DNA from: Escherichia phage BB1
Sequence record: NC_106597.1
Length of the DNA: 64,000 nt
Strand: one strand, 5' to 3'
The position numbers and the translations under genes were made by a program. The notes under the pieces were generated by a model. That model was not told where the DNA came from and made no database searches. It saw only the letters and a program-made list of their open reading frames with translations. Positions 214 through 58,443 of the stretch are shown in pieces (position 1 is the stretch's first letter; each line of letters opens with the position of its first letter).

Positions 214-242
214 TTGCTTAATCCTATAATTCTTGATATAAT
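214..242 (+). promoter_or_regulatory. sigma70-type promoter (TTGCTT, 17-bp spacer, TATAAT)
   Basis: Read directly: -35 at 214-219, -10 at 237-242. Confidence 0.55.
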
Positions 243-299
243 ATTCTCATAGTTTGAAAGAACTATTCTGTTTAATTCTTAATTAAGGAAATATAAAAT

Positions 300-2663: not shown

Positions 2664-3443
2664 ATGAAAATCGAAATTCCAACACAATGTCCCTCTTGTG
2701 GTTCTAAGCTAGATCTTGTCAACGGACAATTATTCTGTCGGAATAAGTCCAACTGTCCAGCGCAATCAAGCAAGTTAATTGAGAACTTCTGTTCAAAAAT
2801 GAAGTTAAAGGGCTTTGGCCCAAAAACTATTGAGAAGCTGGAGCTGACGAAGATTTCAGAACTATTTTACCTAACCGAAGAAGATTTGGTTAGAGCCGTG
2901 GGTAGCAAGGTTGCCGCTAAGTTAATTAGCGAATTAAATACTAAAGTTCGCGGAGACATTGACTTTGGTTCAGTTCTCGGTTCTTTAGGAATCCCTCTAA
3001 TTGGAGAGGTTGCAGCAAAGAAATTATCCCAAAATTGCACTAGCTTCCATGATGTGAAGGCTGACGGCAAGGCTGGAGAAAATTATAAAGCCTGGCTAAA
3101 TTCCCCACAAGGCAAGGATGTTATCGAATTACCGTGGAAATTTTCAACTGGTATTAAGGGCACTAAAGCTGACGTCATCATTACAGATGAATTAGTTGCC
3201 CAGCCAAATGGAATCGCGGTATGTATTACCGGATCTTTGCAAGATTTTGCAAATCGAACGGATGCAACAAACTATTTAGAAAGTCTAGGGTATACGGTTA
3301 AGAAATCCGTTACCAAAGACGTCAAATACCTAATCTGTGAGGATGAATCGAAGCGTTCTTCCTCATCTTATAAGAAAGCCGAAACGAATGGGATAGAAAT
3401 CCTGTCGATTAAAGAACTATTGGAGAAAAATAATAATGTCTAA
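2664..3443 (+). CDS. NAD-dependent DNA ligase, C-terminal subunit (Zn-finger/HhH/BRCT)
   Basis: Four-Cys zinc finger (CPSCGSKL...CRNKSNCPAQ); start moved to ATG 2664, 7 nt after AAGGAAG; track ORF begins at TTG 2661. Confidence 0.75.
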   Translation: MKIEIPTQCPSCGSKLDLVNGQLFCRNKSNCPAQSSKLIENFCSKMKLKGFGPKTIEKLELTKISELFYLTEEDLVRAVGSKVAAKLISELNTKVRGDIDFGSVLGSLGIPLIGEVAAKKLSQNCTSFHDVKADGKAGENYKAWLNSPQGKDVIELPWKFSTGIKGTKADVIITDELVAQPNGIAVCITGSLQDFANRTDATNYLESLGYTVKKSVTKDVKYLICEDESKRSSSSYKKAETNGIEILSIKELLEKNNNV

Positions 3444-4203
3444 ACTGAACTGGAACGTAGAAGGTGTAACCGAGTCTCTGAAAGCAAAAGCCACTGCTCT
3501 GGGTGTTTCTGTAATCTCTCAAGAACAAGTAGCTGCTATCGCTACTGAACTGGCTGCTGAAACTGGCAAAGATGTTACTGCTCGCTCTGTTGGCTCTAAA
3601 CTGCGTAAAGAAGGTTTTGAAGTACAGAAAGCTAACGAAGTACAGAAATCCCCGTGGACTCCTGAGCAGGAAGCTGAACTGGTTGATTTCCTGAACGCTC
3701 ATGCTGGTCAGTATACCTATGCTGAAATCGCTGCTGCTGTAGCTGGTGGTCAGTTCGGTGCTAAACAGGTACAGGGTAAGATCCTGAGTCTGGAAATGAC
3801 TGCTTCTGTTAAACCAACTGAAAAAGCTGCTGCTGTTCGTTCCTTTACTCCGGATGAAGAAACTGATTTTGTTAATCAGGTTGTTGCTGGTGCTACTATT
3901 GAAGCTATCGCTGCTCACTTCGGTCGTAATATCAAGCAGATCCGTGGTAAAGCTCTGAGCCTGCTTCGTGAAGGTCGTATCGCTGCTATGCCGGTACAGG
4001 AAACCTCAAGTGCTAAAACTCGTGAAGATCTGTTAGAAGGTCTGGATCTGGCTAACATGACTGTTGCTGAGATCGCTGAGAAAACTGGTAAATCTGAGCG
4101 CGGTGTTAAATCTATGCTGTCTCGTCGTGGTCTGGTTGCTAAGGACTATGATGGTGCCGCTAAGCGTGCTAAACTGGATGCAAAAGCTGCGGCTGCTGAA
4201 TAA
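3436..4203 (+). CDS. putative abundant DNA-binding protein with four tandem HTH-like repeats (possibly T5 D5-like)
   Basis: Strong host-like codon bias; four internal repeats of a LuxR/sigma region-4-like motif (e.g. VAEIAEKTGKSERGVKSMLSRRGLVAK); size fits a ~28 kDa protein. Confidence 0.45.
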   Translation: MSKLNWNVEGVTESLKAKATALGVSVISQEQVAAIATELAAETGKDVTARSVGSKLRKEGFEVQKANEVQKSPWTPEQEAELVDFLNAHAGQYTYAEIAAAVAGGQFGAKQVQGKILSLEMTASVKPTEKAAAVRSFTPDEETDFVNQVVAGATIEAIAAHFGRNIKQIRGKALSLLREGRIAAMPVQETSSAKTREDLLEGLDLANMTVAEIAEKTGKSERGVKSMLSRRGLVAKDYDGAAKRAKLDAKAAAAE

Positions 4204-4220
4204 TCTGGTAAATTAAACCT

Positions 4221-4253
4221 AAGGGGAGGGGGCTATGCTCCTTCCCCTTTTTG
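4221..4253 (+). terminator. rho-independent terminator
   Basis: AAGGGGAGGGGG...CCTTCCCCTT followed by T-run. Confidence 0.7.
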
Positions 4254-4285
4254 CATTTAGAAGGCACGAAAGCGTGCAAAGGAGA

Positions 4286-10152: not shown

Positions 10153-11501
10153 AGGTTGTTATATCTAATAAAGCCTATTTCAAGCCCGATGATGAACTTT
10201 GGGATTACTGTAGTAAGCAAACCACTTATCACATAGAGACAATGACTAGTAAATACCCTATTATGTATAAGAATAGTGGTGTTGTTGCCAAAGAGATTAA
10301 GTGGATTCCTATTACGCGTCTGGACTTACTAGATGCTAAAGGAGTAAAATACGAATTAGTCGATAAACGCACATTAGCTCCAGTAGATATACCAAAACCT
10401 AAGTTCAAGCTGCGTGAAGAAGACCAGCTCCCAATATATGAAGAGTGCGATGATACCTGTATTATTAATGGTAAGCCTGGATTTGGCAAAACTATCCTAG
10501 CTCTTGCACTTGCATATAAATTTGGCCAGAAAACTTTGGTAATTTGTACCAACACATCTATTCGTGAAATGTGGGCGGCAGAAGTTCGTAAATGGTTTGG
10601 GTTTGAACCAGGTATCATAGGTTCTGGGAAATACAATATTGATCCACCAATTGTGGTCAGTAATATTCAAACAGTGAATAAACATGCGAATAATCTTTCT
10701 AAAGTATTCGGTACTGTTATAGTTGATGAAGTTCACCATTGTGTGGCTACAACTTTCACTAACTTCCTAGAAATATCATGTGCCCGCTATAAGATTGGAC
10801 TATCCGGTACATTAAAACGAAAAGATGGTCTACAAGTTATGTTCAAAGATTTCTTTGGATATAAGATCTTTAGTCCGCCGGTTAATAATACTGTTGCACC
10901 TACAATCCATAGGTACTCCGTGCCTGTTGAGTTATCGGGTAACCAAAACGTACCATGGGCATTACGTGCTAATGATGTGTATAATCATCCTGAATATCGA
11001 GAGACTATTATAAACCTGGCGCATTTATATGTGAATATGGGGCATAAAGTGCTCATTGTAAGTGACAGAACAGAGTTGATCCAAACAGTACTAGAAGCTC
11101 TTGCACAGCGTGGTGTTACAACATACGAAATTATAGGGGCAACCCACTTGGATGACCGATTAAAAATTCAGGAAGATATAGCAAAAGGTGGACCTTGTGT
11201 ACTTGCAGCAGCTCAAAGTATCTTCTCTGAAGGTATTTCCCTTAATGAGCTGTCTTGTTTAATAATGGGAAGTCTCATTAATAATGAATCTCTAATCGAA
11301 CAGCTTGCAGGACGTGTTCAACGTATTGTCGATGGTAAACTCGACCCTATTGTTGTAGATCTAATTATGAAAGGTGGCACTGGACTAAGACAGGCTTCCG
11401 GACGTATGGCAGTATATCGTAACAACGGGTGGAAAACTATTACCATGACTCCGGAAAAAGCAGTTCAATTAGCTAAAATTGCATTTGGCAACAGCTCATA
11501 A
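10149..11501 (+). CDS. SF2 helicase (T5 D10-like)
   Basis: Walker A GKPGFGKT; Walker B DEVHH; ATGA overlap with upstream ORF. Confidence 0.7.
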   Translation: MKVVISNKAYFKPDDELWDYCSKQTTYHIETMTSKYPIMYKNSGVVAKEIKWIPITRLDLLDAKGVKYELVDKRTLAPVDIPKPKFKLREEDQLPIYEECDDTCIINGKPGFGKTILALALAYKFGQKTLVICTNTSIREMWAAEVRKWFGFEPGIIGSGKYNIDPPIVVSNIQTVNKHANNLSKVFGTVIVDEVHHCVATTFTNFLEISCARYKIGLSGTLKRKDGLQVMFKDFFGYKIFSPPVNNTVAPTIHRYSVPVELSGNQNVPWALRANDVYNHPEYRETIINLAHLYVNMGHKVLIVSDRTELIQTVLEALAQRGVTTYEIIGATHLDDRLKIQEDIAKGGPCVLAAAQSIFSEGISLNELSCLIMGSLINNESLIEQLAGRVQRIVDGKLDPIVVDLIMKGGTGLRQASGRMAVYRNNGWKTITMTPEKAVQLAKIAFGNSS

Positions 11502-17409: not shown

Positions 17410-17635
17410 TTTTACCGATCCTAATATGGTAGGTATTAATACTAATACGTCAACTTATCAGATTAAAACTACTGAACCAGAAACGGTTGTACTAAAAACA
17501 GATAAAGAAGGTAATGTTATTTTCTGGGATCCTGAAGGTTTTGTAGAGCTTTGTACTAATACGGATAATGAGCAGTTAAAAATATTATTAACTATTTATA
17601 ATCTTGGTATTATAGAAGGTTGTAGAAGTGAATAA
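17372..17635 (+). CDS. hypothetical small protein
   Basis: ORF overlapping dut 3' end; no clear RBS; followed by bidirectional terminator. Confidence 0.3.
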   Translation: MGKADLEVQEANNFTDPNMVGINTNTSTYQIKTTEPETVVLKTDKEGNVIFWDPEGFVELCTNTDNEQLKILLTIYNLGIIEGCRSE

Positions 17636-17639
17636 TAGA

Positions 17640-17677
17640 AAACCCCAGTGGATTTTGTCCACTGGGGTTTCTTTTTA
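17640..17677. terminator. bidirectional terminator between converging early and late transcription
   Basis: CCCCAGTGG-loop-CCACTGGGG with A-run 5' and T-run 3'. Confidence 0.7.
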
Positions 17678-17681
17678 GCTA

Positions 17682-20600
17682 TTATCTATTCGCTAGTAGA
17701 GAGTTAACTACTATGGTTAGATCTGCAATTTGCTTTTTAAGATCAGATACTTCTGATTCTAGAGCTGTGATCCTGCTATCAGATTCTCTGCTTACCTGTA
17801 CTAACAACCCGGTAATGGCCCCATAATCTACCGAATAGAATCGTTCCTCTCCAACGAGAGGCTCACCGTTTAGGGTGGCACCTGCGAGATCTGTATATTT
17901 TGTAAATCCACTTACAGCCTCCGGTAGCGCTTCCATCACTTCCTGGGCTATAACTCCCGCGTACGGCATACCGTTTTCTTTAAGGGTATATGTATATCCT
18001 TTCATTTTACGGAGAGATTCTGTAGCATTGGGTATCTCTACTATGTTATCTTTTAGATCCCTATCAGAAGCTTGGTTAAATGCGATTGCTTGAGCAGCCC
18101 CATTTACTTGGAGAACACGAGATCCATCAGTATTTTGTTGCGCATAAAATAAGTATCCATCAGTTAATTTACACTCAATAACAGAAGGTCTTCCAGTAGT
18201 ATTACCCCATAATTGAAGTATAGCATCTTTAGCTGCATTTGATGTATTTTCAATTCTAAACTGTCGATTATTTGAACGACGTACAACTATAGCAGTACTA
18301 TCTGCAAAAACTCCACCACCATAATTAGGGGTCCTTATTGAAGTATTACCATCCTCCCCTAAACTTAATGAACTGCCCATCATCTCATTAGCTATAACAA
18401 CAGATTTTCCAGCTCCGGTTTTACCAAAATACCACATTCTAGTATTATTAGCTGTTCTACCTGCTAAATAACCACTTTCAGAAGTATCATCAACACTAGA
18501 TTTTAGGGTTAATGCCTCTCCATTTTTATTTATAAAAAGAGGGACTTTAAAATCAGCATATTGATCCGTAATTATACGATTCCATGCACCTATAGTGCCA
18601 GATTCAATACTTCTCAGATAATATTTATTACCCCTACCGGCTAGTTGAGTAGCATAGTTACCACTAAAACCTATATGTACCCCACCATATACAACATTGT
18701 TTTCAGGACTATTAACTTGACCAGCAATACCATAAAACTTATTGATAGTGTTATGTTGTGTATTCCAGTCTACACCAGTAGAAGATAACATACCTGAAGG
18801 AGCTGAGAAGGTCCCATCCTTATTAAAATTAAAGAATTTATGACTAGCAGAACTAGTCATATCCCTAACAATAATCTGTCCAGCTTCTTCTGTTGCCCTA
18901 AACTCACTTTGTCCTAATATGGTATCAGCACTATTTACTAACTGAGATGTGTATGTATTTTTTGTTACAGCATCGCCTCTAGCAGAAAAACTATTAGCAC
19001 CAACAACACTACCATTAAAAGTAAAAGAAGGTGCAGTAGCAGAAAAGGCGTTACCAGAGTTAAGATTATTAGTTAAAGCAAAATTAGGAGATAATCCCTG
19101 ACGGAAAGGATGATTAGAGTAAAAGCCAGAACCGCCACCAGTAAAGTTCAAGAGGTTGCTAACATTACCCTCAGCATTTCCATCACCCGCATCTGTTACT
19201 CCAAATTTAAATTTAACCCCGTTAGTTCCTAATACATAGTCTTCCGTTGGAACATTTATAACAACCTTTGGGTCTGTCATAATGTTCACAGGAAATGCTT
19301 TATAGTGCACATAAACTGCTATGTGTTGAGCATAGTCCTTGTTACTTCCTTTTATGCATAGAATACCCAACTCATTGGGGTCATACGTTGTGAATACTCC
19401 ATATGCTATACTAGGGCTATCGCTCCAGCCACCACAAGTTACGTAGCCAGAAAAAACATTATTATTCATCTCATGGCCGGCCGATCTACCAGGAGTACGA
19501 ATAGATATAGGTACTGGCATAACCCCATTACCATTAACACCTCCAGTATAAAATATAACTGGATAGTATTTCCCATCAACAGCACCTGAAGGCGCATTAA
19601 TAGTTTGGTAAGTACCTATAAATCCTGTAGTAGGTATACCTAAATTTTGTTGAGTTACAGTAAGATTCCTAACAGCTATAGTATCCGTATTAATCTCATT
19701 TGGTACGAATAGTTGACCATTATGTTTAAAATGGAATGTTTTATAAGATGGGCCAGTATCTTCTCCCATAATCTGCAGAGTTGCAGCAGCAGTACCATCA
19801 GAAAGTTTTTCAGGGTATAAGCGCATACGCGCTCTTTGAGTACCATTCACAGCTCTTAAGTAACTATTAATAATACCTCCAGCAGCTGCCGTACTATCAC
19901 TATATCCAGTTAATGATAGACCAGCAAATAATGGTGCATGCTGGGAACCTAGCTCAATAAGCTGTCTACAGTAGCTAGGATCGTAACTATTAAGGATAGA
20001 TCCCCAGGCAGACCATGTTGAGGTACCTGGGTTATAACTACGTTCGTATATCCTATTAGTACTAAAGGTAATGTATATCTGACAACATCCAGCAACCCCA
20101 TTAGCACTATTTTGTAGTACCATTAAGTTTCCCGCTTCTTGAATAGGATAATTACGGGCTATAGTTGCATTAGCAGATAGATTCTGGTAATAGAAACCTG
20201 CAGACTCACCCGTAAGATCATTCAAGTTCTGATCTGTTAAGGTAGAAAATCTACGATACATTACTTCCAGATTTCTACGTGCGTCAGAAGTATTAAGAGC
20301 ACCAGTGCCGCCCTGAGCTATTGCGAGAGGTTGCCACCTACTAGTTGTAGGATTAAATGCTCCCCACTGACCACCAGCATCAACCTGTAAGTAACAGCCA
20401 TCCGACTGAATATCTGTTGAACAAACGATGGTTCTTGTATCACTGGAACGTTGGAAGCGGTTTAGCTGTAGATTAGTTCTCGCTTCAGCAGCTGATCTAC
20501 CTCCGGTACCACCCTGTCCTACTGCAAGAGGTATGTATGTCCTATTCTCTATATCATAAGCTCCCCAGAGTTTATTGGAAGTAATAATTATTTTTGCACC

Positions 20601-32322: not shown

Positions 32323-33218
32323 TATTTTCTTTCTCCAAAGAAGTTTATTTCTACAGGATCTGAATCAGCAGTTGGTATTACATCATACTCTACCTGATAC
32401 AAATCTGAGAAGTTTAGGCGTTTTGAAATACGTGCTAAAGGGAATGTTATAGAAACATATTTATTTTTAATAATTAGTGGAGTTCTTGTTTCCGGGTCTA
32501 GATTCAAGAACTTATCTCCTACCAATCTCTTAACGTAATAGAAAGCTAGCGTTGCGGAAGCATTCATCTCATTGACATAAGCTCGTTTATTAGTATAAAC
32601 TTTATTTATATCAAATATACTTCTATCTTCTCTCCAAGAACATTGTTGCTGGAAGGACATAGATGCTGAAATTAATGCGGGCAATGGCGCGCTATTAGTA
32701 TACACAGCTGGAGGACTATATGGAAGTACTTCACCTTGTGTAATTGTATATCCATCGCGGAAAGTAGATACTTCAGAGAATTTTCCAGACTCAATACCAA
32801 CATTTAGGATCGGTATACTCTTATCTAAAGAAAAATCAACTGTTGATACATAACAGTTTTCGAAATAAATACAGCTATTATTATGATTAATAATATACAT
32901 ATTGAACATAATAGGTTCAATATTGGGAGTATTTCTTGGCAAAAATAAAGAATTTCCCTCACGCGTGAATCCCATCCAATCAAAGAAATTAGATTCAATA
33001 AGCGTAGTACTGAAATTTATTGCCAATGAAATAGATGAAGGATCTTGAGCATTAATAATAGAGTCTGCATAGTTGGTACGATTATGAATAGTACGTCTAA
33101 GAGTTTTAAACTCTTGAAAAGACGTACTAGCATCATAGTTAGAGAGGGCATCGAAATGATACCCTCTACCATCATACTCAATAACTATTTTAGACTCTCG
33201 CATGAGAGAATAAAACAT
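32322..33218 (-). CDS. tail-associated protein (p140-like by position)
   Basis: 298-aa ORF directly downstream of major tail protein. Confidence 0.35.
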   Translation of the reverse strand: MFYSLMRESKIVIEYDGRGYHFDALSNYDASTSFQEFKTLRRTIHNRTNYADSIINAQDPSSISLAINFSTTLIESNFFDWMGFTREGNSLFLPRNTPNIEPIMFNMYIINHNNSCIYFENCYVSTVDFSLDKSIPILNVGIESGKFSEVSTFRDGYTITQGEVLPYSPPAVYTNSAPLPALISASMSFQQQCSWREDRSIFDINKVYTNKRAYVNEMNASATLAFYYVKRLVGDKFLNLDPETRTPLIIKNKYVSITFPLARISKRLNFSDLYQVEYDVIPTADSDPVEINFFGERK

Positions 33219-33222
33219 TTAA

Positions 33223-54491: not shown

Positions 54492-54686
54492 ATGAGCAAT
54501 AAAATTATTGTTACCAAAACCAGTACAATGGTTGATGTTTTTTACGTTCCCGATACGCCGGAAAACCGACAAGCGGTCGAGCGTGGCGAGTATGATAAAG
54601 TGATTTATGATCACGATGGTTATTATCAACATTTGGTGGATTCCTACGGGGAGGAGGAAAAAATCACGCACCGACTACCAGACTAA
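54492..54686 (+). CDS. hypothetical small protein
   Basis: Start moved to internal Met (MSNKIIVTK); last gene before the repeat block. Confidence 0.35.
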   Translation: MSNKIIVTKTSTMVDVFYVPDTPENRQAVERGEYDKVIYDHDGYYQHLVDSYGEEEKITHRLPD

Positions 54687-54726
54687 TAATCACAGGGCAC
54701 AACTACTAGGAAGTGCCCCCCAATTC

Positions 54727-54751
54727 TCAAATGAGAATGATTCTCATTTGA
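54727..54751. repeat. perfect 25-bp palindrome
   Basis: TCAAATGAGAAT-G-ATTCTCATTTGA. Confidence 0.6.
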
Positions 54752-54944
54752 CCGCGCCCGAGATGGTTAGCCTGCTAATGGTTAGGGTGTTACGTGTCGC
54801 CTTGTGTGATCGTTAGCGAGCTAACCAATTTTTAAGCCTCCTCCAATTTTGCCATTGTTTTAGTATCCCCGCCAAAATTAAACGCGTTAGAATGCGATCT
54901 AGGACGTTTTAACGCTATATTAGAACTATTCACTGCGCAGGAAT

Positions 54945-55053
54945 ACTGTATAAATATACAGTAGGATAAGCTGTGGATAAGTCTGTTAATAACGCCTCAA
55001 AATGGCTAGGATTCTGTCAAGTCAAATCGTGCTGTTAATAAGTCTGTGGATAA
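54945..55053. promoter_or_regulatory. two DnaA-box-like sites in opposite orientation plus palindrome ACTGTATAAATATACAGT
   Basis: Palindrome 54945-54962; TGTGGATAA at 54972-54980 and 55045-55053. Confidence 0.55.
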
Positions 55054-55079
55054 CTTAAATAACAGTGTTTCTCACTTCC

Positions 55080-55260
55080 ATTCTTAAATGCAAATTATTA
55101 TCATTTGTATTTCACTATCTAACTAATAATCATTTCACTTTTTAAATGAGAATCGTTTCACTTCCTGAATAATTTTCATTTCACTTTTTAAATGCGAATG
55201 ATTCTCATTATCATTCCGCTTTTTAAATGCGAATTATTATCATTATCATTCGCATTCAGG
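55080..55260. repeat. degenerate tandem repeats of a ~30-bp unit containing TTTAAATG(A/C)GAAT
   Basis: At least four copies read directly. Confidence 0.55.
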
Positions 55261-55264
55261 CTAG

Positions 55265-55280
55265 CAGGGCAATTGCCCTG
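55265..55280. repeat. perfect 16-bp palindrome CAGGGCAATTGCCCTG
   Basis: Read directly. Confidence 0.6.
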
Positions 55281-55287
55281 CGCTTTT

Positions 55288-55886
55288 GTGCAAATCCGAC
55301 ATTGCTCCATGGGTGTTACGTGCGGGCGTGTATGTGCGAATCCGACAATTTTTGGTAGTGTGCAAATCCGACCCGAAAAATTTTTATAGTGTGCAAATCC
55401 GACAATGAATTTTCCTAAAAACTCCAGCAATCACGAACTGCGTTCGAATCCTGTGGGGTATGTGCAAATCCGACATGGTTTTTCTAGGATTAAGATGTGC
55501 GAATCCGACAAGATTTTTGTGACTTCGATTGGAGGGTGTGTGATTGTGTGAGTTTGGGGAGAAGTTGAAAGAGTGAGAGAAATTTGGGGGAACTGCGGGA
55601 GGGGTGCATGTTTGGTGCGGAGCACCTGATTTGCGGGGATTTTGTGGAAGAGTTGAGAAGATTTGGGTTAATTTGAGATAAGTGCAGATAAAGTAAAATT
55701 TTATTAGCTAAATGGGGCAAAATAGCTTGACAAGTGAAAATTTCTGTGGCTCCAAAAACTCAGGCAATCATGGGCCTTCGGCCCGAAATAATGCTGCCGT
55801 TTTCAGGAGATTATATGTTCCTAAAAACTTAGGCAATTGTGCAAATCCGACCAGTTTTTAAACTCTTGTCAGTGTGCAAATCCGAC
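55288..55886. repeat. eight direct copies of 13-mer GTGC(A/G)AATCCGAC, irregular spacing
   Basis: Copies start near 55288, 55334, 55360, 55391, 55462, 55497, 55839, 55874. Confidence 0.7.
55500..55700. other. C-depleted G/T/A-rich tract (~200 bp) with strong strand asymmetry
   Basis: Almost no C on + strand; GGGG/GTGTG runs. Confidence 0.5.
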
Positions 55887-55926
55887 AGTAATTTCTAGAA
55901 ATGTGTTTTGGAAAAATGTCTTCTAG

Positions 55927-55968
55927 AAATAACCGCCCTCCCAATAACCGCCCTGTATTAACCGCCTA
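55927..55968. repeat. three closely spaced direct repeats (A/T)TAACCGCC(C)T, iteron-like
   Basis: Copies near 55929, 55945, 55959. Confidence 0.5.
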
Positions 55969-56385
55969 TTGCTGGAGTTTCTAGGAATATGAAAACCGCC
56001 TAAGTTGACTAGAGTTTTCCTAGAAACTTAGGAGTCTAGAAGAAAGTGTTGTGCCATCCTAGCAGATGAGCGGCAACAGGTGTATCATCTTGAACACAAA
56101 TATTGCCTTTAAATATTATAAGGTAAATAAAAGTTAATATACCCCCATTTCATGAGAGTTAGTCCCTCTAGGCGCGTGCGATTTGATACATCCTCCTGAG
56201 TCTCGGGGAGGAAGAACAATTGACGAGAACCTGCGAACAGAACCGTCATCAAGTGTTTTCCTACGAGGAATGATGTAAATCTACGGCCTAGAGGTAAAAA
56301 CAAGTTGATGTTTTTAATCTATGAGATTATTATAACACATTATTCTCACGAATGTCAAGCAAATTTCGTTACTTTTAAATTTTCG

Positions 56386-57114
56386 TCATGAGTTTGGAGT
56401 TGGGTAAATTTTTATGCAACCTTGACTTAATAGATATTTTTCTGCCTCTACAGCTTTAATATTGAATATCTCTTTTGCTCCATCGAATTTATAATGATTA
56501 GCAAATTTATTCTCGAAAAATTTATGTGCTTGGTGTTCTATTTTGTAAGCAAGTTCTTTCGATCCTTTCTTGTACTGGTAGATACCAAATACTTCCATAT
56601 CTTCAAAACCCGGCACACGCAATTTATCATACTCTAGATTCTTAAACCTTTGATGTGGCTCTCTAGAAACCCCAATCTTTGTCTTTAATTTCTTCCTAGA
56701 CTGATCTTTATTAGAGAAGATATAGAGATATGTGGGAAATTGAACATCTTCTTCTACTTCCGGTTTCTCGATAGGTGTATTGAGGTTGCTTTCTCTAGCA
56801 CATTGTAAACAACCGTGCCCATCTAGGTGAGATCTAGCAGTTTGCATAAAGTATCCTTTATGCTTATAGCACCATATCTCTACTAACTGATTGGCTGTCT
56901 TATAATTAACTCTTTCATACCCATACTCTTCTTTCTGGACTTTTAAAGCTTTCCTAATAAAGATAAGGTTTAAGGCCTCTTGTTGGAAGTCAGGGTGAAG
57001 TTGCCTAATCTTCGTTATATTAGTAGAGCCATTTGACTTCAAAAAGTTTTTAAGAGGAAACCTCCTGGCTTCCTCGCGTAGCTTTTTATTAATTTCAGCA
57101 CGTAAATCATCCAT
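56386..57114 (-). CDS. hypothetical protein; possible GIY-YIG-like nuclease-related domain
   Basis: 242-aa ORF; weak resemblance (YLYIFSN...KIGVS) to GIY-YIG patterns, plus Cys/His cluster HLDGHGCLQC. Confidence 0.35.
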   Translation of the reverse strand: MDDLRAEINKKLREEARRFPLKNFLKSNGSTNITKIRQLHPDFQQEALNLIFIRKALKVQKEEYGYERVNYKTANQLVEIWCYKHKGYFMQTARSHLDGHGCLQCARESNLNTPIEKPEVEEDVQFPTYLYIFSNKDQSRKKLKTKIGVSREPHQRFKNLEYDKLRVPGFEDMEVFGIYQYKKGSKELAYKIEHQAHKFFENKFANHYKFDGAKEIFNIKAVEAEKYLLSQGCIKIYPTPNS

Positions 57115-57832
57115 CTTTATTAACCTTTAGAATAACTCCTTTTGACGCCATGAAAAGGAATGTTGCTAAGTAAGATGACTCGGAGTTTAGCGCAGAATAA
57201 TCTACACTTCCTCTAGGTCTAGTTTCTTGTTTAGTGTCAAGAATTGTTGCTATATCAAACTTAACAGACTTTGCAACTTTTCTAGCTTGTTCAGGATCAC
57301 GTAAAATTTCAAAGTGTGCAGCATCTAGAATAGGATTAGATGTTGTTGAGTCGTCAACTATACTTAGATGAACCTGCGCAAGTGTCGATACAATTCCTAG
57401 CTTTAATTCAGATAGAGAAGAATAAGGTGGTTCTACTTTCTTTGTAAGTCTAGGAAGATGATCGTATTTACATTGCTTAGGTGGAATCATCAAAATCTTA
57501 GGATAACATTCTAGGGCTGTCTTTGCACTTCCTTCTTTAAAATGTGGGAGTTCTTTATCAGCAAAGACATGGAATGAATCTGCTGAAAATCCTTTAATAG
57601 TCGGATCAACAGTTTGAATCAGACGACGTATACTAATATAAGAAGGAGCTAACGTAACTTCTTCTGCATCTTTATTATATTTAGGTTGTCCACTAGCATT
57701 AATGTATGCAGGATAGAACTCTGCACAAAATGCCACTGCATGTGCCTCTAACTCATTAAGCTGAGAAACACATTTCCCATTACAAGCTCTAGCTAATTTA
57801 ATAATCTCTGCTAAATTCTTTTTTATACTCAT
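57107..57832 (-). CDS. hypothetical protein
   Basis: ORF in co-oriented early operon. Confidence 0.45.
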   Translation of the reverse strand: MSIKKNLAEIIKLARACNGKCVSQLNELEAHAVAFCAEFYPAYINASGQPKYNKDAEEVTLAPSYISIRRLIQTVDPTIKGFSADSFHVFADKELPHFKEGSAKTALECYPKILMIPPKQCKYDHLPRLTKKVEPPYSSLSELKLGIVSTLAQVHLSIVDDSTTSNPILDAAHFEILRDPEQARKVAKSVKFDIATILDTKQETRPRGSVDYSALNSESSYLATFLFMASKGVILKVNKDG

Positions 57833-58443
57833 TAATTACCTCTCTTATCTTCATTAATAGCAGCTCCCAACGCTTCAAGGATAGTATCACTTATACTCCC
57901 AGGTCTAAGATTATTAAAGTGAGTAACATAGAGGGGACTTTTAAAACCTTCAGCATCCGCAGGTGCTACGCTTCGCATATCAGATTCAAAAGCTTCTTGA
58001 GTATGTTTCAACTGTACAGAAGGGCCGTAATCTTCCCCAAACTTATATGACTTCGTACTACTTACCACACCCCCACAAGGAACATTGTGCATATCCGACA
58101 TTAACCTTTTATCGGAGTTACTCAGCATTGAGATTGTCCCTGACTGCCACGGATCTCTAATAGTTACAGGAGTACTAGGACGGTTAACCTCAGCCTTCAC
58201 TAGTTTGTATCCTGCATCGATCAGTGCATTAATCAGGTTATCAGCCGGGATGCGAGCCGTGCCAAAAATCTTACGAGCATCTTCGAGCTTACCTTCAAGA
58301 TCTTTACATGCTCTAAGGTCAGTGTGTGCAAATGTTAGCTTCATAGATTTGAGTTGTATAGTAGCAGTTAAATCTTTAAAGCTATAATCCCATGTGTTCA
58401 GTTCATGGTCTGGTACTACTTGAATAGGTTGTTGTGTAAACAT
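57832..58443 (-). CDS. hypothetical protein
   Basis: ORF in co-oriented early operon. Confidence 0.45.
   Translation of the reverse strand: MFTQQPIQVVPDHELNTWDYSFKDLTATIQLKSMKLTFAHTDLRACKDLEGKLEDARKIFGTARIPADNLINALIDAGYKLVKAEVNRPSTPVTIRDPWQSGTISMLSNSDKRLMSDMHNVPCGGVVSSTKSYKFGEDYGPSVQLKHTQEAFESDMRSVAPADAEGFKSPLYVTHFNNLRPGSISDTILEALGAAINEDKRGN

Follow-up and report, generated by a model that had tools for sequence, protein, structure and literature searches.

A candidate promoter-driven structured RNA gene of variable sequence beside the left terminal repeat of T5-like phages

Among model phages T5 is a classic, and for decades no explanation has been found for the non-coding DNA around its injection-stop signal. 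In Escherichia phage BB1 (NC_106597.1), of which a stretch of 64,000 nucleotides was analysed (hereafter the window), a structured segment at about 56150-56300 lies close to this DNA, and an initial annotation made from the sequence alone had described it as non-coding and as possibly a structured RNA or a large terminator for leftward early transcription. The question is what this segment is: the tail of the operon in front of it, a site acting as DNA, or a gene of its own. The explanation that is considered best here, with a probability of roughly one half, is an independent, unannotated small RNA gene that is structured and driven by its own promoter, rather than a tail of the early operon.

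Both the segment and the DNA on either side of it match T5-like phages (Demerecviridae), and the closest sequences are those of Escherichia phage DaisyDussoix (96% over 601 bp) and Citrobacter phage CitS1 (100% over 191 bp). By homology with T5 and with EscoHU1, in which the repeat is annotated to 9914, the terminal repeat ends at about 55700-55750 of the window, and the long hairpin of the segment (called the rod below) and the promoter lie about 400-550 bp and about 600-650 bp, respectively, outside the left terminal repeat. In T5-like phages the unit is located 400-700 bp outside this repeat, that is, on the first DNA entering the cell in the second injection step. The ORF list and the comparison with T5 agree with the initial annotation that the segment is downstream of the early operon, since the rod is 3′ of the leftward early genes. 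The nearest of these genes in the window encodes a putative homing endonuclease (Table 1) and separates the promoter from the last early gene that is conserved; it is absent at that place in T5 and in several other versions of the locus, so it looks like a mobile insertion. The next two genes upstream belong to PHROG families without known function, and the second of them (57832..58443) is the counterpart of T5.019.

The part of the terminal repeat that falls within the window carries the injection-stop region. The sequence GCAGGGCAATTGCCCTGCGCTTTTGTGC at 55264-55290 corresponds to the site that is annotated in T5 as the major 7.9% single-strand nick (T5 AY587007 9661-9668), and the same site also scores as a plus-strand terminator-like hairpin. 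A DnaA-box-like sequence, (A/T/G)TGTGC(A/G)AATCCGAC, is present in seven copies (regions 55286-55895, 54970-55054 and 55928-55954), and TGTGGATAA, which we take to be the consensus DnaA box, lies inside two copies of a 24-mer in the same repeat-rich region. In addition, AATAACCGCCCT occurs as a tandem pair with more AACCGCC words close by, and the region as a whole corresponds to the injection-stop repeats described for T5. Just inside the terminal repeat, positions 55450-55700 have a strong G-over-C skew (GC skew up to +0.73) and contain AAATTTGGGGGAAC, which resembles, in inverted orientation, the GAAATGGGGGT motif that follows the rod. In the analysis of Davison (bioRxiv 10.1101/866236), the repeats of T5 are described only up to position 10409, and the promoter and the hairpin considered here do not appear.

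Table 1. Features of the candidate RNA unit and its neighbouring gene (positions of the window).
Feature	Coordinates	Strand	Basis
Sigma-70 promoter: TTGACA, 18-nt spacer, TG-extended TATAAT	56329..56358	-	12/12 hexamer matches with TG
Small A/U hairpin P1, AAAAACA-UCAAC-UUGUUUUU, close to the predicted 5′ end of the RNA	56296..56315	-	Inverted repeat I5
Long unbranched rod hairpin, about 50 bp	56164..56294	-	Folding; repeat finder (inverted repeat I2)
Conserved ACUCUCAUGAAAUGGGGGU element, weak hairpin, invariant G5 run	56141..56159	-	UGGGGG 3′ of the rod in every version
Near-invariant block UUCAAGAUGAUACACCUGUUGCCGCUCAUCUGCUAGGAUGGCACAACA + CUUUCUUCU, imperfect hairpin then U-rich run	56038..56093	-	Kept in Tequintavirus/Epseptimavirus
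T5orf172 / GIY-YIG-like putative homing endonuclease gene, neighbour outside the RNA unit	56386..57114	-	Pfam T5orf172 E 5e-6; PHROG endonuclease and homing-endonuclease families

The rod, its promoter and the predicted transcript

First of all, the structural feature at 56164-56294 is real and significant. When the minus strand is folded as RNA, a single unbranched hairpin of 51 pairs is obtained (-54.1 kcal/mol, z -5.24), which none of 200 shuffles equals, while the plus strand of the rod segment gives -47.9 kcal/mol with z -3.11. The long-range complementarity claimed in the initial annotation is thus upheld by folding, the check that it had proposed: CCCTCTAGGC is found at 56164-56173 and GCCTAGAGG at 56286-56294, and an independent repeat finder returned the arms 56158-56173 / 56286-56301, together with a second, small inverted repeat in the same run (56295-56302 / 56309-56316). 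The internal hairpin proposed at the same time fared less well; its two words exist (TCCTCC at 56191-56196 and GGAGGA at 56207-56212), but it is outside the best fold, in which GGAGGA pairs with the distal arm. Similarly, the segment is GC-rich compared with its immediate flanks (47% vs 29-40%) but not unusually so, as neighbouring stretches reach 49%. At the base of the rod there are conserved words, CUCUAGG..GAUU (GAUUAU) on the 5′ side and CACGCGCC on the 3′ side, and the interior is variable. A substrate of RNase III is characterised by at least about 20 bp of near-continuous double-stranded RNA, and the predicted fold offers 51 pairs in one hairpin.

When every 140-nt stretch of the 64-kb sequence was scanned on both strands, the rod segment had the fourth best GC-adjusted fold. 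The three segments ranked above it, 33081-33220 (-), 17561-17700 (+) and 4141-4280 (+), with residual z of -5.1, -4.4 and -4.0, are branched or multi-hairpin folds, and, judged by inspection of the predicted structures, the rod is the sole single unbranched structure among the top-scan folds listed.

Between the last gene and the rod there is a predicted sigma-70 promoter aimed into the rod. Defined as two hexamers at a spacing of 16-18 nt with an optional TG, it reads from 56358 to 56329 with every hexamer position matched and the TG present, and the predicted transcription start is at about 56322 on the minus strand. Among relatives, the -35 hexamer and TGTTAT(A/C)AT are kept and the spacer differs in at least nine versions, with TTGCAT as the -35 hexamer in one group. 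The counterpart promoter matches at 12/12 hexamer positions in Klebsiella phage KpGranit and at 10/12, with TG, in Serratia phage Slocum. In publications on T5 transcription, on BF23 and on Tequintavirus RNA-seq, no mention of the promoter or the hairpin was found; the older T5 promoter-map literature was outside this search, and the promoter may have been mapped there in vitro long ago.

Elsewhere in the window, an ordinary gene promoter (TTGCTT..TGATATAAT) is located at 214-262 (+), ahead of ORF 300-710. The initial region TATAAT-AnTCTCATAG is common to the RNA promoter and to this gene promoter (window 234-255), and both share the initial transcribed word ATTCTCATAG, which suggests a common T5 promoter class. 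When a second copy of the promoter-hairpin unit was sought in the window, only this similar gene-promoter start at 234-255 was obtained. The mini-palindrome AATCTCATAGATT at the transcription start was also considered as an RNA helix and rejected, being a feature common to T5 promoters that straddles the predicted start.

In the proposed mechanism, the promoter would start an RNA near 56322, and this RNA would be composed of a short A/U hairpin, the rod of about 130 nt and the conserved AAAUGGGGG element, followed by an A/U-rich tract (56100-56140) and the near-invariant block, in the order of Table 1. The position of the A/U hairpin P1 keeps a hairpin in other versions of the locus with different stems: UUAACAACUA/UAGUUGAUUAA, ACAAUAA/UUAUUGU, GUUAAU/AUUAAC and CUAUG/CAUAG. 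The ACUCUCAUGAAAUGGGGGU element forms a weak hairpin in the window (-7.6 kcal/mol), and its UGGGGG after the rod is invariant, the Klebsiella and Serratia phages included. The block TTCAAGATGATACACCTGTTGCCGCTCATCTGCTAGGATGGCAC (window 56038-56093 and its homologues) hardly varies across all the Tequintavirus and Epseptimavirus loci, that of T5 among them, and is far better conserved than the non-coding DNA around it; its two adjacent hairpins together fold at -14.7 kcal/mol, and the terminator scan did not flag it.

Since the window version has no canonical terminator after the rod, the length and the 3′ end of the RNA are uncertain. An intrinsic terminator, that is, a short G+C-rich stem-loop with a U-tract, was sought on the minus strand across 54600-57200 and none was found; the rod, about 50 bp long and followed by CUAACUCUCAUG, does not have this form. 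A proximal 3′ end is possible near 56125-56135, and the near-invariant block is possibly either the distal 3′ end or a separate cis site. The RNA would be non-coding, with a length of about 200 nt if it ends near 56130 and of about 280 nt if it ends near 56040.

Rod versions among T5-like phages

The locus was gathered from GenBank phages, IMG/VR and metagenomes, and ten G+C-rich loci in the collection were left out as chance matches. The layout of promoter, small hairpin, long rod and AAAUGGGGG motif is found in Tequintavirus, Epseptimavirus, the Klebsiella Sugarlandvirus phages and Serratia phage Slocum; every T5-like phage examined has this layout, with the rod in discrete versions. At least 12 of these can be distinguished: A (the version of the window), B, C, D, E, F, G, H, I, T5, Klebsiella Sugarlandvirus and Slocum. 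In T5 itself a wholly different sequence stands at the same place with the same promoter-hairpin-rod-G5 layout. The conservation in relatives that the initial annotation had called for is thus present as architecture, kept in four phage groups under at least 12 sequences.

Folded independently against shuffles, all 12 versions are rods, with z of -3.8 to -7.9 (this whole range being covered by versions B to H and T5; I -6.6, Klebsiella -4.3, Slocum -6.3). In their interiors, most pairwise identities are at the shuffled level (51 ± 6%), and a residual likeness is seen between A and B (72%) and within the E-H group (56-79%). Wherever the flanks allow a comparison, the interior of the rod has changed much more than they have; A and B, for example, are 72% identical in the interior and 98% and 96% identical in the flanks. 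An alignment of all versions by MAFFT followed by RNAalifold gave no consensus structure; because the interiors cannot be aligned, the support across versions comes from the independent folds and not from column-by-column covariation. Taken together with compensatory changes within the T5 version, folds of this strength in 12 versions whose interiors are mostly at shuffled identity are what is expected of a structured non-coding RNA in general. The structured-RNA reading of the initial annotation is in this way strengthened and also made more precise, as a minus-strand hairpin with its own consensus promoter and an architecture kept across several T5-like genera. The feature, most likely an RNA gene, occurs in all four of the T5-like groups sampled and is hypervariable in sequence.

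The same comparison bears on the coding capacity of the segment. The initial annotation had counted one implausible ORF; two of at least 30 aa in fact overlap the segment, one of 64 aa (-) and one of 31 aa (+), and its judgement stands in that neither is conserved, no ORF being shared between versions on either strand among 9 versions. A small protein gene, namely the 64-aa ORF at 56109..56303 (-), is scarcely credible as an explanation: the ORF exists, and a 'hypothetical protein' is placed over the segment in several database records, but it has a TTG start, it is truncated or absent in every other version (with none on that strand in T5), and the interior of the rod has been replaced without a reading frame being kept. 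Among these records are Slocum, where the 46-aa CDS CPT_Slocum_029 is annotated over the rod (3256-3393 of locus L084), as well as CitS1, STWB21 and Eps7; since no ORF is conserved across versions, these 'hypothetical protein' CDSs are probably mis-annotations.

Separate transcript, operon tail or DNA site

As a main role, the large terminator for leftward early transcription that the initial annotation had offered is not supported: no U-tract follows the rod in the window, the promoter intervenes, the operon of KpGranit terminates by itself, and type F and Slocum terminate separately. A terminator role of the rod is at best secondary. The wider explanation, in which the rod is a 3′ element of the leftward early operon and serves as an RNase III-type processing site, a stabiliser or a terminator of read-through mRNA, is distinctly unlikely. 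In its favour, no terminator lies between the last gene (stop 56386) and the rod in the window, so operon transcripts should include the rod; moreover, a long near-continuous duplex is the kind of substrate that RNase III takes, and in the early mRNA of phage T7 this enzyme cuts long duplexes. On the other side, a conserved consensus promoter stands between gene and rod in every version, the rod in the window has no U-tract, and the unit is kept beside differing upstream genes. In KpGranit, a bidirectional intrinsic terminator (ACAGGGACT..AGTCCCTGT; 2746-2770 of locus L082) is located between the early operon and the RNA promoter, so that the operon is terminated ahead of the promoter; such a terminator before the promoter is absent from the Escherichia and Salmonella versions. 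In type F, a 14-bp terminator that incorporates the ACUCUCAUGAAAUGGGGGU element lies directly 3′ of the rod, and in Slocum a GGGCUAU..AUAGCCC hairpin with a U-run is found 3′ of the rod. In addition, one and the same rod version occurs behind differing promoter spacers and upstream genes, and the converse is also seen. The terminator of KpGranit, those of type F and Slocum, and this mixing of spacers and upstream genes together favour a separate unit over an operon tail. Read-through from the operon should carry the rod too, and a secondary role in 3′ processing or stabilisation is possible.

The transcript could also be much longer. Continuing leftward into the terminal repeat, it might lie antisense to the pre-early genes, which are read rightward, or cross the injection-stop region; the rod would then be part of its 5′ leader and stabilise it. 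The promoter indeed faces the repeat, no strong terminator is present in the window version, and the pre-early genes beyond the repeat-rich DNA lie on the opposite strand. However, good terminators occur right after the rod in type F and Slocum, and the intervening DNA, about 1.5 kb long, is non-coding and rich in repeats; this explanation is regarded as very improbable.

Whether the rod acts as RNA or as DNA can be approached through the changes that it has undergone. Within the T5 version, 99.1% of the cells are paired, and three pairs have changed on both sides with pairing kept; the covariation score is 0.076, against 0.047 for shuffles (0/500 reach it) and at most 0.032 for slid controls, and this signal stems from essentially one lineage split, of 4 vs 4 sequences. 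There is also a consistent but modest bias of the structure towards the promoter sense: each of the five multi-sequence groups (A, T5, B, E/G/H and F) has its lower consensus fold energy on that strand. One-sided changes in the stem, read in the promoter sense, give 11 G.U against 1 A.C, and in the opposite sense 5 against 7. The covariation in T5, the strand bias, the promoter and the terminators together favour an RNA on the minus strand.

As the rod is an imperfect palindrome, a role at the DNA level is conceivable. In such an explanation the palindrome, with its CTAG/GCGC base and the CCCCCAT motif, would be a cis site for end processing or packaging, replication initiation or DNA transfer, and the promoter would provide transcriptional activation. 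A precedent is given by phages of the T7 type, which have direct terminal repeats and make use of promoters and hairpins close to their concatemer junction. Also in its favour are the position relative to the repeat boundary, conserved across genera within about 400-700 bp, and the words at the base of the rod, which are conserved even without a conserved partner, as CUCUAGG is in versions E to H. When mismatches between the two arms were counted as a cruder test for wobble pairing, the outcome (17 G.U vs 11 A.C) was not significant. The adjoining region, furthermore, is full of repeats, DnaA-box-like words and CTAG palindromes (Davison, bioRxiv 10.1101/866236). Against this, a protein site is not expected to survive the wholesale replacement of about 100 bp with pairing alone kept, the fold energies and one-sided substitutions favour the promoter-sense strand, and in some relatives terminators bracket the unit in a gene-like manner. 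A DNA-level element is considered possible but unlikely. A related idea of a nick site, based on the resemblance of GCGC in CACGCGCC to the T5 nick word, was dropped as an explanation for the locus in general because the rod version of T5 has no GCGC.

Possible roles and comparison with known systems

Returning to the preferred explanation, a separate small RNA gene, the question is what such an RNA would do and whether it belongs to a known class. The covariance search proposed in the initial annotation was run against Rfam and gave no family: there is no match at gathering thresholds in the whole window, and none up to E = 10 on 54600-56500 that overlaps 56100-56360 (6S RNA, phi29 pRNA, tmRNA, riboswitches and ribozymes included). 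ARAGORN reported 0 tRNA or tmRNA genes in the window. A BLAST comparison of the segment with every complete E. coli genome gave no match, so the segment is neither a copy nor a mimic of host sequence at the DNA level. As for candidate pairing targets, a search for 12-mers that recur in the rest of the window, directly or as their complement, gave one match per sense, which is taken as about chance.

Even close relatives among these phages have rods of unrelated sequence, with the shape and the motifs at the base kept, so the RNA is unlikely to act by pairing with a conserved target. A role that depends on structure would fit better, for example the binding or sequestering of a protein that recognises dsRNA, or processing of the RNA by RNase III. 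It is proposed that the RNA accumulates and acts in trans by its shape, in which case it might offer RNase III, or some other factor of phage or host that binds dsRNA, a double-stranded scaffold or decoy; alternatively, it might be a substrate processed from the rod.

Beyond this, the versions are discrete and diverge fast, and in this they resemble loci on which diversifying or balancing selection acts, for example determinants of immunity or incompatibility, or the targets of host sensors. On the other hand, the constant place by the repeat boundary and the transcription towards the repeat keep a role in end processing, packaging or replication alive, to which the G-run, the A/T-rich stretch and the adjoining DnaA-box-like repeats also point. 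In its most specific form, the rod RNA would be a family-wide 'specificity' RNA whose versions are kept by selection, working either in genome-end processing or packaging with a phage protein or as an abundant dsRNA decoy in an arms race with a host sensor, which would account for a shape that is kept under a sequence that is replaced; this form is considered quite improbable.

Several known systems can be compared with the rod. The pRNA of phi29 (Rfam RF00044) is a small structured RNA with an early host-type promoter near the genome end pointing at it, and its fold is kept while its sequence diverges almost fully; these traits are shared by the candidate RNA. It is the closest analogy for a role in end processing or packaging. 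The rod, however, has no Rfam match and shows nothing that would place it in the pRNA family or link it to capsids, and it is a simple rod rather than a multi-helix junction with interlocking loops. We know of no RNA requirement for packaging in T5-like phages. For the decoy mode proposed for the rod, the likeness is with adenovirus VA RNA, an abundant viral decoy that occupies dsRNA-binding host proteins: it is about 160 nt long and largely double-stranded, and has its own strong promoter and a conserved shape despite variable sequence. It comes from a eukaryotic virus and is made by Pol III, so that the comparison is an analogy only, and we know of no identified target in bacteria that senses dsRNA and on which T5-like phages would act.

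The early mRNA of T7, a virulent coliphage whose early transcription depends on host RNA polymerase, also carries long imperfect hairpins, which are processed by RNase III. The T7 sites are shorter, are located between genes of one mRNA and keep their sequence among close relatives, whereas the rod has its own promoter, no gene after it and about 50 bp. ColE1 RNA I/RNA II and the c4-type RNAs of P1/P4, examples of the antisense or primer RNAs by which plasmids and phages determine incompatibility or immunity, share with the rod a strong promoter, a highly folded RNA, discrete sequence 'alleles' and conserved flanks, and the G-run and A/T-rich stretch after the structure with adjoining DnaA-box-like repeats add to the likeness. 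The rod locus differs in having no conserved overlapping antisense promoter or mapped origin, and in having one hairpin instead of three kissing stem-loops. As for 6S RNA (Rfam RF00013), T5 uses sigma-70 RNA polymerase throughout infection, and the overall rod-like shape and the size of 150-200 nt are similar; however, there is no Rfam match up to E = 10, and the large central bubble is seen in no rod version.

In terms of the biology of these phages, the candidate RNA gene adjoins the injection-stop region; in the annotations of T5 and DaisyDussoix (four records) nothing is annotated at the locus, and several other records, where they annotate it, give a 'hypothetical protein' there. An RNA made from this gene would belong to the earliest products of the second-step DNA, and the few structured RNAs listed for virulent phages would gain a new family. 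The gene is a testable candidate for functions to which no gene has been assigned, including early shut-off, end processing, defence evasion and competition between related phages.
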